A stretch of 18,199 nt of DNA, from contig SHMW01000087.1 in the NCBI GenBank assembly GCA_008080735.1, positions 1 through 18,199 of the forward strand, read 5' to 3'. Positions 2,816 to 14,144 of this stretch are shown piece after piece (positions within the stretch are counted from its first letter, which is position 1; every line of letters begins with the position of its first letter). The stretch comes from Promethearchaeota archaeon (GTDB lineage: Archaea > Asgardarchaeota > Lokiarchaeia > Sigyniarchaeales > SOKP01). The position numbers and the translations under genes are program-made. Under the pieces are notes generated by a model. That model did no database searches. It saw only the letters and a program-made list of their open reading frames with translations, and had not been told where the DNA came from.

Positions 2816-4114
2816 TTATCGTTTTGCTTGCCTTGGTATAATTTTCTTTTTTCCGTTCATATATTTGCGTAGGATTTTGGGTATGGTAATCGAATGGTCT
2901 TCATTCTGATAGTTCTCAAGTAAGCAACAAATCGTCCTCTCCGTTGCAATGGCAGTAGAATTTAATGTGTGGACGATATCTTTTTCTTTCTGGGTTCCCA
3001 CTTTCCCCATCCGGATCTTGAGTTTCCTGGCTTGATAATCAAGGCAATTACTGCACGAGACTAATTCCCGATAAGTCTGAGATGCCGGAAACCAAGCCTC
3101 TAAATCATATTTTTTCGCAGCGTTATCATTCAACTCTCCTGATGCGATACTAACGATACGATAGGGTAAGCTTAATCTCTTGTAAAATATTTCCGCATTT
3201 GAGATTAATTCTTCGTGAAAGTCCCAAGATTGCTCGGGTTTACAAAAGACAAACTGTTCAATTTTCTCGAATTGATGAACTCGAAAGATTCCGAGGGTGT
3301 CCTTTCCGTGAGAGCCCGCTTCTCTTCTAAAACACGATGAAATACCCGCATACTTCAACGGTAAGATATCAGGATCCAAAATCTCGTCATAATGATATGC
3401 CGCAAGTGTTTGTTCCGAGGTGGCTATCATGTAGAGATCTTCGTCTTGAATCTTATATAACTGCTCTTCAAAATCAGCAAGCTCCGCAGCTGCTTTAATA
3501 ACTTCATATTTGACGAAGAATGGAGTCCACATGGGGGTATATCCTTTTTCTTGTAAGATCTCAAGCCCAAACTTCATTAACGCTAAATTTAGCATGGCGA
3601 GATCACCTTTCAAATAATAAAACCTCGAACCTACTACTTGTGAGGCTTTAGTCGTGTCCGCGCCATCTATTAGCTCGACAAGATCTACGTGAGACACGGG
3701 GGTAAAACTAAACTCGGGATGTGTGCCTCCTTCTCGAATAATTTTGTTTTCTTCCTCCGTTTCACCAATCGGTACGGTGTCGTGGAGGATATTTCCCACA
3801 ACATATCTATATTCTTCTCTCTTGTTCAAGAACTCATCTGCCTTTACCTCTAAGGCTTCAATCTCCTCCTTTATAGCTGCAGATTCGCTTATTGCGTTTT
3901 GTGCTCTCTTCTCGTCTCCCTTTTTTTTATATTCTGCGATCGAATGAGAGATTTTGTTACGTTTTTCTCGCAAGCTTTGAAGCTCTCCTAACACTTCCCT
4001 CCATTTGATATCAAATTCTAACACTTTTCTGGCATTTTGTTGGTTCTTGAACCGTTTTTCCTCTGATGCCACTATTTTTTCAATATTTTCCCTGAAGATT
4101 TCTATATCAAGCAT
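2816..4114 (-). CDS. serS: Seryl-tRNA synthetase (standard/bacterial-eukaryal type)
   Basis: MLDI start with N-terminal coiled-coil arm, TSE loop (IATSEQ), motif 2 FRREAG...GIFRVHQFEKIE, ELVSCSNC.DYQAR, and motif 3 HTLNSTAIATER. Confidence 0.97.
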   Translation of the reverse strand: MLDIEIFRENIEKIVASEEKRFKNQQNARKVLEFDIKWREVLGELQSLREKRNKISHSIAEYKKKGDEKRAQNAISESAAIKEEIEALEVKADEFLNKREEYRYVVGNILHDTVPIGETEEENKIIREGGTHPEFSFTPVSHVDLVELIDGADTTKASQVVGSRFYYLKGDLAMLNLALMKFGLEILQEKGYTPMWTPFFVKYEVIKAAAELADFEEQLYKIQDEDLYMIATSEQTLAAYHYDEILDPDILPLKYAGISSCFRREAGSHGKDTLGIFRVHQFEKIEQFVFCKPEQSWDFHEELISNAEIFYKRLSLPYRIVSIASGELNDNAAKKYDLEAWFPASQTYRELVSCSNCLDYQARKLKIRMGKVGTQKEKDIVHTLNSTAIATERTICCLLENYQNEDHSITIPKILRKYMNGKKKIIPRQAKR

Positions 4115-4722: not shown

Positions 4723-6723
4723 TTGTCTGATGATAAACAGACCAAGGATGAAGTTAGGATTGGAGTTTACGTCTGCGAGTGAGGCGTGAATATTGGAGCT
4801 ACTATAGATTGCGATGCGGTACGGAAATTTGTTGAGGGGCAACCGAATGTGGTCGTTGCTAGAACTAATAAATTTACGTGTAGTGATCCTGGACAACAAG
4901 TCATAAAAAACGATATTTTAGAATTAGACATTAATAGAGTAGTAGTTGGAGCATGCACCCCAAAAATACACGAACCTACCTATAGAGCGGTGCTTATTGA
5001 GGCAGGATTAAGTCCGTATTATTTCCAGATGGTCAATTTAAGAGAGCAATGCTCGTTTGTCCATGCGGATAAAAAAGAAAGGGCAACGGGAAAAGCCAAA
5101 CGACTAATGACCGCTGGTATAAATCGAGCACGAGAATTAGAATCCGTTCCTCGAAAAGAAATACCAATCGAGAAATCCGTACTGATCGTGGGTGCGGGTA
5201 TTGCCGGTATGAATGCAGCCTTAGATTTGGCTGATCAAGGCATAAATGTGTACCTTGTAGAGAAGGAACCCACTATCGGCGGTAAAATGGCCCAATTGGA
5301 CAGAATTTTTCCAACTGACGATTGCGGGATCTGAGTACTGGCCCCTATAATGGTCAATGCGTCAAAACATCCGAATATCACCCTACTGACCTATAGTGAT
5401 GTAGTGGAATTTAGTGGTATAACTGGAGATTATAAAGTAAAAATTCGGAAAAAGCCCCGCTATGTAGATCCCGATGTATGCACTGGCTGTGGTCTCTGTA
5501 CGACGAAATGTCCCATAAATATGCCGAACGAGTTTGATAGGGGCATTGGAGAGCGGGGAGCCATATATATTCCATTCCCACAAGCGGTTCCTAAGCTTGC
5601 GGTTATAGATATGGATGTATGCATTGGATGTAAAAGTTGCGAACGAACATGCCCAGCTGAAGCAATAGATTTTGAGCAAGAACCCCAATATGAGGAGATA
5701 AAGGTGGGTTCTGTAATCATTGCGACTGGCTGGGACGAATACCCAATTTGGGAGTCAAATGAATATAAATACGGCATTTATCCTGATGTGATCACCCAGA
5801 TTGAATTAGAGCGGATGCTGAGTCCGATAGGTCCTACCGATGGACATGTTTATAGAGTATCTGACGGAAAGCAACCCAAAAAAGTTGCGATGATACAATG
5901 TGTTGGTTCGCGAACTCTGCGGGGAAACGAATATTGTTCGGGTGTGTGTTGTAATGTCGCTCTAAAAAACGCGAATTTACTTAAACAAGAATATCCCAAT
6001 ATGGAACTTGTAATATTTTACATTGATATTCGCTCGCCTGATAAAGGAAACGAGGAATATTATCGAAAGATTCGGGAATCAGGAGTTACCTTTATTAAAG
6101 GGAAGCCAGGAGATATTAAACGAACGGAAAACGGAAGTTTGCGACTGTTTTACGATAACGCGCTACTTGATCAAGTAACTCATATGGATTTTGATTTAGT
6201 CGTCCTTTCAACGGGAATTATACCCTCGAAAGGAACACACGAAATTATAAACACAATGGGACTAAGTAGCGGTCCTAGCGGCTTTCTCTCAGAGATCCAT
6301 GGATGCCTCAAACCACAAGAAACAAAAAATATGGGAATTTATATTTGTGGCTGTGCTGCGGGACCTAAAAATATACCATATTCGGTCTCGACCGCGTTAG
6401 CTGCCGCGAGTAAAGCATCTACTTTGCTTTCTAACGACACGATTAGTCAAGAATTAATCATCGCTGAAGTGAATGAGGAGTTATGTATGGGCTGTCATAG
6501 ATGTGAGAAAGTGTGTTATTATGATGCCATTAAAGTTGCGGATGATGATATTGCGGTGGTTGATGATCTAAAATGTAAGGGATGCGGTGCTTGTGTAACC
6601 TCATGTCCTGCTAGAGCGATTGATATCAAGTATTATCGGGAAGCCCAATTCGAGGAAGAAATCAAAGGCATCGGAATGACAGAGATACCGATTGAGGATG
6701 CGGAAGCGATGGTAGAAAAATAA
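4723..6723 (+). CDS. hdrA: Heterodisulfide reductase subunit A (FAD/FeS electron-bifurcating subunit); selenoprotein with 2 Sec (U20, U204), 666 aa
   Basis: Single frame from TTG 4723 (purine-rich GAGAAGGGG upstream) to TAA 6721-6723. TGA 4780-4782 lies in RIGVYVCE-U-GVNI (family RIGVyvChCG.NI). TGA 5332-5334 lies in FPTDDCGI-U-VLAP (family FPTlDCs.CiL.P). Also present: GACTP, GAGIAG FAD motif, inserted and C-terminal 2x[4Fe-4S] ferredoxin motifs, and QCVGSR...YCSGVCC. Confidence 0.93.
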
Positions 6724-6741: not shown

Positions 6742-7161
6742 ATGTCCAAAGAAAACAACAAGAGAAATATAATTGCGTTTGCTTGCGATAAATGAGGGTA
6801 TGCGGCGGCCGATTTGACCGGGACAACCAGAAAAACCTATACGACCGATGTCAATCTAATTAGAGTACGCTGTACAGGAAGAGTTGGTATTCATTTAATT
6901 ATGGATTGTTTTGTAAATGGTGCGGATGGTGTTGCCATCATTTCATGACAAGAAGGTGAATGTGAGTTTGGAAATGGAAACCTCGTGGCATATAAACATC
7001 TGAGTATGCTGAAGAAAATTTTTACACATCTTGGGATTTCTGAAAAACGTATACAGCAATATTTTTGTTCCGCTGCTGATGTTGAAAAATTTATCAGTTC
7101 AGTAAAAGATATCTCACAAAAGATTCACGCACTCCCTCCTTTACCTAAAAAAACCGAATAG
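6742..7161 (+). CDS. mvhD: MvhD/VhuD [2Fe-2S] hydrogenase delta subunit; selenoprotein with 2 Sec (U18, U69), 139 aa; absent from the ORF track
   Basis: Manual translation: MSKENNKRNIIAFACDK-U-GYAAADLTG...LIRVRCTGRV...NGADGVAIIS-U-QEGECEFGNGN...PPLPKKTE*. TGA 6793-6795 and TGA 6946-6948 match the Cys in family motifs FlCnwCsY.gAD and GADGV...gCh.gdChy. Stop is TAG 7159-7161. GGTGG lies upstream of the ATG. Confidence 0.93.
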
Positions 7162-7221
7162 AATGATTCTTTCGAACAAATTATAGTCGTAAGATGACAA
7201 CCTTGCAAGGGTTAATTCGGT
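7153..7221 (+). promoter_or_regulatory. Putative SECIS element (eukaryote-like, tandem G.A core) 3' of mvhD
   Basis: A-UGAU (7163-7167) sits opposite UGAC (7195-7198). The upper helix is UCUUUCGA (7168-7175) / UCGUAAGA (7187-7194) with one U.U, closed by C7177-G7186, and the apical loop begins AAA (7178-7180). A lower helix ACCGAAU (7153-7159) / AUUCGGU (7215-7221) is possible. Folded by eye. Confidence 0.78.
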
Positions 7222-7280
7222 AAAGAGTTTTTTAATTATTATCAATGAATTTTTAGAATGTAACAATAGCATATAGAATT

Positions 7281-8783
7281 ATGAGTAATAAAGTTAATAA
7301 TGAAGTGAAGTTTTCTTGGGAATACCTTAAAAGTGTAATGCAGACATTGGATTCCTATAAGGTACGAGCTTTAATAGATGCTAAGGAAGAAATTATTGAA
7401 TGTGAAGTTTATGATGAGGAAGAATATAATAAAATTTTATTAAAGCTAATCGATGAAGAGAGAATAAAATATCAATTATATAATTACTTGAGAAATAATC
7501 AAACCCTCAATCTTTCCAACTTGGAAGCATTTTCTGAAGACTATGATCTCTTGCTTAGAAAAACATTAAGTCTGGCATATCTATTAGAAAAAGAACAATT
7601 AATAACCATACAGGAAGTATATGAGAAAAATGAAAATGCTGAAGGAGGTTCGAAAAAAATATTCAAAGATTTGGTTGTCTCAGTGGACGATGTTAATCTC
7701 ACTTCTATTAAACCGATATATGAACCTGTAAAAGTCATATTTGATTCCGAAATATGTTCTGGATGCGGGATATGCGCTGGCATCTGTCCTGTTGATTGTA
7801 TTATGATAAAAAATGGATTTGGAGAAATCGATGATGATAAATGTATACGATGTGGATTATGTTATCATGTGTGTCCACGATCTTATTTACCAGTGGATAT
7901 ACTTAATATGTATCAAGACAACGTCTCCGAGTATAAAGATTATGGGAAGATAGGAACCTTTAAGGAAGCATATTGCGCTCGCACGAAAATCGATGAAATA
8001 CGTGAAGTATGTCAAGATGGGGGTGTTTCTAGTACAGCCTTATATTATCTTTTGGATAATAATATAGTTGATCTCGCCTTAGGAGCAAAAATGGGAGAAA
8101 AACTATGGTGTCCCGAGCCAACTATAATAGAAAGTAAAGAAGATATTCTCAACACAGCGGGCACTAAATATGTGAATAATCCGAATTTAATGCTTCTAAA
8201 TCAAGTGGGACCTGAGAAAAAAGTAGCTGTAGTAGGTGTACCTTGTATGATGCAAGCATTGCTTAAATCAAAAATTTTTGATATTGATATTCCCTCATTA
8301 ACCAATGTAAAATATCGGATAGGAATCTTTTGTATGGAATCTTTTCCATATCAAGAGGGATTCCTTAAGATATGCGAGAAACTAAATGTGGATGTGGAAA
8401 ACGTCAAAAAGACTGATATAAATAAAGGAAAGTTCTTTATTTATACAAAAGACGGAGAGGAGCTTAGTGTTCCCATTAAAGAGGTAACTAGCTTAGCACG
8501 AGAAGATTGCGAGGTCTGCTTCGACCTTACCTCAGAATCCGCAGATATTTCAATTGGCTCGATTGGTGCCCCCTCCGGATGGAATGCGGTCTTGGTAAGA
8601 ACAGAGGAAGGAAAAGAGTTATATCAGGCTTTGTTGGAAAATGACCTAATTGAATCGAAACCAATTGATGAGGTCAAACCAGGATTACCATTACTCATAA
8701 AAATTGCGAATAGTAAACGTAAGAAAAGTAACTCACATATTTCTAAAAAGAAAGAAAACAACCAAAAATATCCTCAATATTAA
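7281..8783 (+). CDS. F420 hydrogenase/dehydrogenase beta subunit family (FrhB/FdhB/FpoF-like) with 2x[4Fe-4S] ferredoxin and ~150-aa N-terminal extension
   Basis: Ferredoxin motifs CSGCGICAGICP and CIRCGLCYHVCP. FrhB-type motifs QDGGVSS, AGTKY, VVGVPC, IGIFCME and CEVCFDLTSESADISIGSIGAPSGW. Confidence 0.88.
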   Translation: MSNKVNNEVKFSWEYLKSVMQTLDSYKVRALIDAKEEIIECEVYDEEEYNKILLKLIDEERIKYQLYNYLRNNQTLNLSNLEAFSEDYDLLLRKTLSLAYLLEKEQLITIQEVYEKNENAEGGSKKIFKDLVVSVDDVNLTSIKPIYEPVKVIFDSEICSGCGICAGICPVDCIMIKNGFGEIDDDKCIRCGLCYHVCPRSYLPVDILNMYQDNVSEYKDYGKIGTFKEAYCARTKIDEIREVCQDGGVSSTALYYLLDNNIVDLALGAKMGEKLWCPEPTIIESKEDILNTAGTKYVNNPNLMLLNQVGPEKKVAVVGVPCMMQALLKSKIFDIDIPSLTNVKYRIGIFCMESFPYQEGFLKICEKLNVDVENVKKTDINKGKFFIYTKDGEELSVPIKEVTSLAREDCEVCFDLTSESADISIGSIGAPSGWNAVLVRTEEGKELYQALLENDLIESKPIDEVKPGLPLLIKIANSKRKKSNSHISKKKENNQKYPQY

Positions 8784-12833: not shown

Positions 12834-14144
12834 ATGTCAGAGCCGTTAAAAGAACTCAAGAAAAATATAGAATATAAAAGATATTATACAGGCATATTCA
12901 GTATCAATTATTTATTTCAAGGCTTTACGAGTTCAATGTTTACTGTTATTATTCCTATTTATATTTTAACTTTAGCTGAAATCACAACTTCAGATATATC
13001 CTTAATCGCAACCATTATTTTAATACCGTCATCAATAAAGCTTATTTTTGGGATGTTGAGTGATAAATTTGGAGTAAAGAATATCGGTCGGAGGAGACCG
13101 TGGATAATAATTCCCGTAATGATTGCAGGATTAATGTGGGCATCATTACCCCTTATTATTCGAGTGGCTGATGTAGTAATTAGTTTTATGATTATGGGAC
13201 TTATAATTAATACGGGGGTCATGATGGGCGATACGTCCTCAGACGGACTTATTCTGGATATTTGTCCAAAAGAAAGATTAGGAAGGGTTCAAGGTGTCGT
13301 CTGGGGCTTTCGCTCAATAGGGATGATTGCGGGAGGACCAATATTAGGATTCATGGTATATGCAAATATATTGATAAATATCGAGACTACTTTTGTAATT
13401 CTTGGTGTTTTAATGATTTTAACATCATTTACCACGCTCCTTATAAAAGAACCTACGGTCTATGAGAGTGTAAAATTATGGCCAAATTTCAAGGAATTAT
13501 TTAAAGATAGGGAAGATTTAAAAACCTATGGTTTTTCTCTATTTAATTCGGTCGCGGATGGAATTATTTTGTTATTTCTGTCGCTATTTATTTTAATTCA
13601 AATGGGTCTCCTCAATATAGAGGAGGTAACCTTAAGCCTAACAAGTATTACGTCTGGTGAGGCATTTTTCATTCAAGCTATTATTTCCATTATAAGTAGC
13701 ATCGGGATAATTTTTGGGGCATTATTAGGAGGATTATTCTCCGATCTTATATCAAGAAAGCTCAGTGTATATGGTGCGATGTTCTATACAGCGGTCTCGA
13801 TAATGCTACTGTTAATTGAAACAAATTATATCGGTTTATATATCTTCTCCTTATTAATAGGGGTGGGGATCGGTTGGAGACATAGTGCGTTCTCTGCGGT
13901 AATTTCCCAGATGGCTAAATATCATCCAAAAACGGATAGTACCTACTTCGCGTGGTGCACTTCATTATCAAATCTCGGAGCAAATTTAGGTCTTCTTTTC
14001 ATGGGCCTTTTATTTGAGAATTTCCAAAGTTTTGCAATAATTTTTCTATTAACCGCAATAGCTCAATTGGTGAATTTAATTCCTTTTAGTATCATGAAAA
14101 CCAAAAAATATGAAATATCAAGAGAAAAGTCCAGATCACCATAA
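12834..14144 (+). CDS. MFS transporter (AmpG/BT1-like)
   Basis: About 12 TM segments. Motif-A-like GMLSDKFG...GRRRPW and GLFSDLISRK. D..SDG in TM4. Confidence 0.88.
   Translation: MSEPLKELKKNIEYKRYYTGIFSINYLFQGFTSSMFTVIIPIYILTLAEITTSDISLIATIILIPSSIKLIFGMLSDKFGVKNIGRRRPWIIIPVMIAGLMWASLPLIIRVADVVISFMIMGLIINTGVMMGDTSSDGLILDICPKERLGRVQGVVWGFRSIGMIAGGPILGFMVYANILINIETTFVILGVLMILTSFTTLLIKEPTVYESVKLWPNFKELFKDREDLKTYGFSLFNSVADGIILLFLSLFILIQMGLLNIEEVTLSLTSITSGEAFFIQAIISIISSIGIIFGALLGGLFSDLISRKLSVYGAMFYTAVSIMLLLIETNYIGLYIFSLLIGVGIGWRHSAFSAVISQMAKYHPKTDSTYFAWCTSLSNLGANLGLLFMGLLFENFQSFAIIFLLTAIAQLVNLIPFSIMKTKKYEISREKSRSP

Follow-up and report, generated by a model that had tools for sequence, protein, structure and literature searches.

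We analyzed a stretch of 18,199 nucleotides (nt) from the genome of a Promethearchaeota archaeon (contig SHMW01000087.1 of assembly GCA_008080735.1; hereafter "the window"), focusing on a short RNA element that overlaps the end of its mvhD gene. The segment at 7149-7228 of the forward strand very probably serves a bicistronic Lokiarchaeial (Promethearchaeia) hdrA-mvhD mRNA as its selenocysteine insertion sequence (SECIS), a member of the lokiSECIS/Asgard type I eSECIS-like class that would fold into a three-way junction. In the proposed structure, a kink turn (K-turn) made up of a closing pair, an A-A-U bulge and tandem G.A/A.G pairs leads into a nine-position helix II with an A-rich loop, and the canonical side of the K-turn splits into a lower helix, formed with the last mvhD codons, and a side hairpin. 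This one element would most likely direct selenocysteine (Sec) insertion at all four UGA codons upstream of it, acting at a distance as eukaryotic SECIS elements of the 3' untranslated region (UTR) do. The SECIS call itself, the operon logic, the overlap with the coding sequence (CDS) and the speculation about L7Ae/L30 are already published. The well-supported refinement here is comparative: a predicted standard K-turn within a three-way junction, with a conserved third arm, in several Asgard families, where covariation backs both the lower helix and that arm.

Two covariance models recovered the element on the forward strand: a model of the three-helix structure (R1), at 7149-7228 with 69.3 bits (E = 1.7e-12), and a second model built from a diverse set of elements (R2), at 7149-7229 with 74.8 bits (E = 2.7e-18). 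The SECIS core, AUGA at 7163-7166, is preceded by A7162 and begins 2 nt past the UAG stop codon of mvhD. Helix II (7167-7175 with 7187-7195) has nine positions, seven of them standard pairs and two U.U oppositions (7167/7195 and 7172/7190), and is capped by the 11-nt apical loop ACAAAUUAUAG (7176-7186), which starts A-rich and ends in AG. The lower helix, or C helix, joins 7153-7159 to 7215-7221 through seven Watson-Crick pairs, and the side hairpin (7199-7213; stem AACCU/GGGUU, loop UGCAA) forms the third helix, on the K-turn's non-bulged strand. Six consecutive T's at 7228-7233, 7 nt past the lower helix, are likely an archaeal oligo-T termination signal. The features that an earlier reading of the same DNA, made from the sequence only, had described were all found where it had located them, and the lower helix does, as it claimed, take in the last sense codons of mvhD and the U of the UAG.

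At the sequence level, the element has all the parts of a standard K-turn. The bulged strand (7161-7166) consists of G7161, which is the last base of the UAG and occupies position -1b, the bulge A7162-A7163-U7164, and G7165 and A7166; the non-bulged strand (7196-7198) supplies G7196 and A7197, opposite A7166 and G7165 in the two sheared pairs, and C7198, which pairs with G7161. Since the side hairpin begins directly after C7198, opposite the bulge, the secondary structure has a k-junction-like topology. All sequence features that define lokiSECIS are likewise present: the AUGA and GA flanks, a nine-position stem, and an 11-nt A-rich loop ending in AG.

To trace the element among relatives, we searched 40 related genomes with the MvhD protein and obtained 22 orthologous loci (59-85% identity), all within one family of the GTDB taxonomy. 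The same element lay over or just past the stop codon in all 22. R1 matched 24/24 and 25/25 of the sampled genomes of this family, with 2-9 matches per genome. Seven strong matches occurred in the genome of the window itself. Paralogues of mvhD precede two of these. Another comes after a vhuU-like gene (DCULSCAAH) that terminates at the UGA within the AUGA core, two more lie on C102 and C10, and one (G000:C7:24725-24805, reverse strand, locus L037) follows an open reading frame (ORF) of 162 amino acids with in-frame UGAs, including adjacent UGAs in a GCUU motif. The motif thus recurs after other TGA-containing genes of the same genome, as would be expected if the sequence-only reading of it as a SECIS were right.

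We assessed covariation in three alignments: the orthologues (A3), a set of 78 rows comprising this element and 77 others that follow other selenoprotein genes (A4), and 13 elements from four other Asgard families (A5). Paired cells amounted to 89.5% in A3, 89.5% in A4 and 90.8% in A5, and the pairs that had changed on both sides numbered 19/20, 20/20 and 19/20, respectively. The covariation score reached 0.55 in A3 and 0.80 in A4, compared with at most 0.19 and 0.16 when the registers were slid, and none of 500 shuffles matched the observed score in any of the three alignments. Each of the three helices is supported separately: covariation was seen at all six modelled pairs of the lower helix and all nine pairs of helix II, and the side hairpin covaries in A3, A4 and A5. 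The proposal that the motif is conserved and covaries 3' of Asgard selenoprotein genes was therefore borne out in the 22 orthologues, the 77 further elements and the 13 out-of-family ones; across these roughly 115 elements, the lower helix and the side hairpin covary, which supports the three-way junction.

The out-of-family elements were identified with R2, which matched 5/5 genomes of family f18, 3/3 of f15, 3/6 of f21, 1/26 of f9 and 1/4 of f16. These elements have a GC content of 35-54% and different helix sequences; one, for example, has the lower helix CUGCUGC/GCGGCAG and the side hairpin CCCCU-GCG-AGGGG. Of the seven matches whose upstream ORF we read, six end mvhD genes with UGA at two conserved positions. 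A single element from family f4, which belongs to the same order, was examined by hand and has the same three-helix plan.

Base counts across the junction follow the pattern of a standard K-turn. At the closing pair (-1b/-1n), 94 elements have G-C, two have A-U through a change on both sides, and two have G.U; nearly all elements have a G at the second position before the A that opens AUGA, and the C after the 3' GA is near-invariant. The bulge reads AAU in 61 elements, GAU in 34 and UAU in 4. Of 104 aligned rows, 102 have the 5' GA; on the 3' side, 74 rows have GA and 30 have AA, and the apical loop measures 11 nt in 92. One to three further pairs often lengthen the closing-pair stem before the branch point. 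Among 101 elements, 0-5 nt (most often 2) separate A1n from the side hairpin, which has a stem of 4-7 bp, including two C-G pairs that are strongly conserved, and a 3-8-nt loop. This loop contains GC in 90/101 elements and GU in 10/101, so that its G is near-invariant, and its sequence persists in families whose GC content spans 27-54%.

These counts also bear on the form of the core. The sequence-only reading had described a eukaryote-type K-turn core with a UGAU/UGAC quartet. The first part holds, with all lokiSECIS features in place; over the quartet, which would set C7198 opposite U7164, the data favor a standard K-turn in which C7198 pairs with G7161. This preference follows from joint G-to-A and C-to-U changes, seen in only two elements: L100 (G019:C51) and L105 (G024:C75), which have the A-U closing pair, are the sole two whose stem is followed by GAU and not GAC. 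We thus favor a standard K-turn at the center of the junction, which would presumably be kinked in three dimensions.

Several observations weigh against the interpretation set out above. The covariation counts come from alignments of related sequences that were fitted to the model and are biased towards it. RNAfold applied to 7140-7235 gave a z-score of only -0.95, and the proposed fold (-13.0 kcal/mol) is not the minimum free energy (MFE) structure (-14.0 kcal/mol), so that free energy does not prefer it; holding the K-turn bases unpaired makes the proposed fold the MFE structure. Helix II of this copy contains the two U.U mismatches. The A-U closing pair, occurring in two elements only, may stem from a single event. 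The k-junction-like three-dimensional fold, with the side arm on the non-bulged strand, is a prediction from topology. Neither ARAGORN, run with and without introns, nor the Rfam model RF01852, which had nothing above its gathering score, found a tRNA-Sec in this 93%-complete metagenome-assembled genome, the listed candidates being ordinary tRNAs. A search with PF01248 for an additional L7Ae-domain paralogue showed that 41 related genomes carry two or fewer such genes, with or without this SECIS. Finally, a search for sequencing runs containing the locus returned marine-sediment DNA runs only, which may have given rise to this metagenome-assembled genome, and no RNA sequencing run.

As thermodynamics alone does not single out the fold, its support is comparative, and since the alignments were model-fitted, we added checks that do not depend on the model. 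On a plain MAFFT alignment, unguided RNAalifold recovered 8/9 pairs of helix II and the side hairpin; the lower helix was missed, owing to a linker whose length varies by 1 nt. Folding each sequence singly, with only the K-turn bases held unpaired, yielded all three helices in 90/101 elements. For the lower helix, duplexes between the 5' flank and the 3' tail of one and the same element had an energy of -8.2 kcal/mol, compared with -4.6 kcal/mol for mismatched partners; among elements without the common CCGA motif, just 4.4% of the cross pairs reached the median duplex energy of the self pairs.

A functionless chance hairpin in AT-rich DNA would account for the weak z-score, but we regard it as exceedingly improbable. 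We defined a core descriptor (AUGA; at least 7/9 pairs; an 11-nt loop with at least three A's among its first five bases and a final G; then GA or AA) and searched for it in the whole genome and in order-1 Markov copies of it (8.3 Mb searched). The descriptor does match simulated genomes, with 6-9 sites per copy, compared with 26 in the real genome. The expectation that follows, however, is about 0.03 sites per window, yet the sole site on either strand of the 18.2-kb window, at 7163, lies 2 nt past the stop codon of a gene with two in-frame UGAs, and the element, retained there in 22 orthologues, covaries. Almost as little credence can be given to a reading in which the side hairpin and its flanks are a 5' leader structure that regulates the downstream frhB/fdhB-like gene (7281-8783) and are no part of the SECIS. 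Such a gene does follow mvhD here, and a similar gene start is seen at several orthologous loci; nonetheless, the three-helix plan also occurs after genes with other downstream neighbors (the vhuU-like gene and the 162-amino-acid ORF), and the lower helix pairs with the coding end of mvhD and with nothing in the downstream leader.

More serious, and still unlikely in our judgment, is the alternative that the functional SECIS is the published hairpin by itself, and that the lower helix and side hairpin form a separate 3'-end module, for mRNA stability or oligo-T termination, with no role in Sec insertion. Published models indeed require just the core, stem and loop. We counted T-runs, defined as at least five T's starting in a 38-nt window that opens 8 nt short of where the model match ends, and found them at 52/101 elements, as opposed to 16% of random genome windows and 4/101 upstream coding windows. 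This enrichment implies that many transcripts probably end just after the junction, which places the structure often at the 3' end, as this alternative would have it; about half of the elements, however, have no T-run. Moreover, the additional helices nest about the core through fixed linkers of 1-3 nt, the near-invariant G-C pair ties them directly to the K-turn, and the loop of the side hairpin is conserved across families of 27-54% GC, which a generic stability hairpin would not need. We thus prefer the three-way-junction SECIS, with the transcript probably often ending at the T-run right after the element. Two further readings of parts of the element were rejected: a pairing of the apical-loop UAG with a CUA after the core, since the CUA is not conserved (CAA here) and the geometry is implausible, and a box C/D sRNA, since there is no RUGAUGA or CUGA box.

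Examining where translation stops in relation to the element revealed a limited set of arrangements. Measured from the A of AUGA, the stop codon of the orthologous loci is a UAG at -4 in 11, including the present one, a UGA at -3 in two and a UAA at -6 in one; in five others the UGA of the core itself (+1) is the stop, and in two, L008 and L021, the stop is a UAA within the apical loop (+14). When the orthologues are combined with elements after other genes, 57 have a single upstream frame that is unambiguous; of these, 19 stop at UAG at -4 and 12 at the core UGA, the two commonest arrangements, and most of the remaining stops lie no more than 16 nt upstream. UAG and the UGA shifted by one base are preferred because their G is the G of the K-turn closing pair. 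A ribosome with a stop codon in its A site covers roughly a dozen downstream bases. From this footprint, a ribosome terminating at the UAG would have to unfold the element, melting the lower helix and the K-turn together with part of helix II.

The two loci with the stop in the apical loop are peculiar in themselves. There, the mvhD frame extends across the K-turn and helix II's 5' arm; in L021, moreover, AUGC replaces AUGA, and mvhD contains one UGA only. This arrangement may reflect a decaying element or an assembly error.

Upstream of the element, both genes of the predicted bicistronic mRNA lie on the forward strand. The first, hdrA, occupies 4723-6723 (probable TTG start; stop UAA at 6721-6723; translated with TGA as U), and its product matches the Pfam families Fer4, Pyr_redox_2 and FAD. 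Its two in-frame UGA codons, at 4780-4782 and 5332-5334, fall within the Cys-type motifs CEUG and DDCGIU. After a spacing of 18 nt follows mvhD (also vhuD or frhD; 6742-7161; 139 codons; stop UAG at 7159-7161), whose product matches PF02662 (E = 7.7e-38) and whose UGA codons at 6793-6795 and 6946-6948 are also in Cys-type motifs. All four UGAs are thus at conserved Cys positions, and they lie 217, 370, 1831 and 2383 nt 5' of the SECIS core.

The class to which we assign the element has been described twice. Mariotti et al. (2016, PMC4989117) defined lokiSECIS, according to their main text, by AUGA, a 9-bp stem, an 11-nt loop (A-rich in its first five positions, with G last after A) and GA/AA. 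The same text reports that one element after VhuD is common to HdrA over about 2 kb, that UGA stops lie near the element with partial CDS overlap, AUGA supplying the stop in one case, that a K-turn is expected while SBP2 is lacking and L30 is a candidate reader, and that eukaryotic SECIS models gave no match. The structure presented in that main text amounts to a hairpin only: it has no wording on a junction, lower stem, internal loop or helix, and "hairpin" itself appears only in the title of a reference. That text mentions none of the following, all found here: a lower helix, a G-C closing pair next to an RAU bulge, and a side hairpin with a GC loop.

Huang, Xiao and Zhang (2024, PMC11227280) surveyed more than 400 Asgard genomes and, in their text, gave the type I model a lower stem and an internal loop. 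As described there and in a 2026 review (PMC13188914), Asgard eSECIS-like type I elements share with ours a core of GA_[G/A]A, a 7-15-bp upper stem containing no more than two mismatches and a loop of 8-20 nt; in the same accounts, as here, a single element is common to hdrA and frhD, and overlaps of UGA stops with AUGA are frequent. The difference lies between the core and the lower stem, a region that the text of PMC11227280 treats as an internal loop with no conserved bases and no third helix, whereas we find a covarying hairpin with a conserved loop. In the main texts of PMC4989117 and PMC11227280, the class is a matter of computational prediction alone. The supplement of PMC11227280 does not contain the exact protein strings of this locus, but it lists a FrhD about 96% identical, from Lokiarchaeia GCA_014730295 (shorter motif; Sec written X). 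The present element therefore adds nothing to the catalogue, and the SECIS call is not new. We found a third helix described neither in the two main texts, nor in the 2026 review, nor in any paper of the searched collection that brings SECIS and three-way junctions together, a search that covered text and not the figures or the 2016 supplement and so falls short of proof. Against Rfam 15 (E up to 10), no SECIS family matched anywhere in the window and nothing else of relevance covered the element; matches elsewhere were limited to sub-threshold snoRNA and lncRNA noise.

What the comparative data do provide is a sharper model: a conserved unit of about 70 nt with three helices, a textbook K-turn and an extra arm whose loop is conserved in sequence. 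We tentatively extend this to a broader proposal, doubtful as it still is, in which the type I SECIS of Lokiarchaeia and at least three other Asgard families would be a k-junction-like three-way junction, and not a hairpin of the eukaryotic sort whose internal loop lacks structure; its third arm, missing from published models, would be a required second determinant for the reader. The Asgard element is the main argument for the descent of the eukaryotic SECIS from an archaeal one, and the third arm is a structural difference from the eukaryotic SECIS to be weighed in that argument.

Compared with the eukaryotic type I SECIS (RF00031 and related), the element shares the tandem sheared pairs of AUGA...GA, the unpaired adenines at the apex, action at a distance from the 3' side, predicted for the archaeal element, and a lower helix. 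Helix II is longer in eukaryotic SECIS elements than the nine positions found here. In place of their internal loop, the archaeal element has a G-C pair, a 3-nt bulge and a three-way junction; it also overlaps the CDS, and a PF01248 search of this genome found no SBP2-like additional L7Ae-domain gene. The VhuD SECIS variant of Methanococcales and Methanopyrus, as given in the main text of PMC4989117, belongs to the same gene and likewise has AUGA on one side and GAC or AAC on the other, above an additional lower stem. The methanogen SECIS is defined, in the sources available, by a GAA_A bulge and a G/C-rich upper stem; neither was seen in 7149-7228, which was inspected by eye and not by a formal scan.

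Among known RNA folds, the closest likeness is to the k-junctions of TPP riboswitches and DUF-3268 (Wang et al. 2014, PMC4005666; Li et al. 2023, PMC10573300), and it is one of secondary-structure topology only. In most elements the side hairpin begins 0-3 nt after position -1n, and the AA at 2n.1n in 30/104 aligned rows recalls the rare K-turns with an A.A pair. Described k-junctions have a third helix coaxial with the C helix and cross-strand hydrogen bonds, and they differ from many elements here, in which one to three additional pairs separate the K-turn from the branch point. The 5' stem-loop of U4 snRNA and the K-turns of box C/D RNAs are bound by L7Ae/15.5K and consist of a canonical stem, a 3-nt bulge (AAU in U4) and G.A and A.G pairs. 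Unlike these scaffolds of non-coding ribonucleoproteins, the element examined here resides in an mRNA, overlaps a stop codon, carries an A-rich apical loop and has no C/D boxes.

The genome encodes SepSecS (389 bits). The published Loki tRNA-Sec carries an intron. As for the protein that would read the K-turn, the set of L7Ae-family genes is the same with or without the SECIS, and no dedicated K-turn reader is therefore visible; any reader of the L7Ae type would consequently be a housekeeping protein. L7Ae or eL30 might read the K-turn, and we hypothesize that, with such a reader, the loop of the side arm would be the obvious place for specificity. An Asgard-specific hypothetical protein was reported in PMC11227280 to be encoded beside genes of the Sec machinery. 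The side arm may thus serve as a second recognition or architectural determinant for an archaeal SECIS-binding factor, and the junction offers concrete baits and mutants with which to find that factor.

The genome of the window holds further sites of the same kind. At G000:C10:33496-35035 on the reverse strand (locus L036), three full three-way-junction SECIS elements occur within about 1.5 kb on one strand, which suggests a tandem set of small selenoprotein genes. Near position 33825 of G000:C13, also on the reverse strand, a site matching the core descriptor (8/9 pairs, loop ACAAAAACGAG) lies about 36 nt past an mvhD paralogue with two UGAs. This site is absent from the R1 and R2 matches shown, and the models therefore do not find every SECIS in the genome.

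Lastly, we inspected the surroundings of the operon. Downstream of the SECIS, on the forward strand, lies the frhB/fdhB-like gene at 7281-8783, which has a ferredoxin domain (PF04432, PF04422 and Fer4); the similar gene start of several orthologous loci, ATGAGT...GAAGG, is found about 60-100 nt 3' of the element. On the opposite strand, about 0.6 kb upstream of the selenoprotein operon, a gene for seryl-tRNA synthetase (PF00587 and PF02403) occupies 2816-4114. Seryl-tRNA synthetase is the enzyme that first charges tRNA-Sec, and its proximity to the operon may be a coincidence. Two sub-threshold Rfam matches to box C/D snoRNAs, both on the reverse strand and inside ORFs, at 13352-13436 (28.3 bits, E = 1.9) and 3168-3235 (22.7 bits, E = 0.9), are probably noise.

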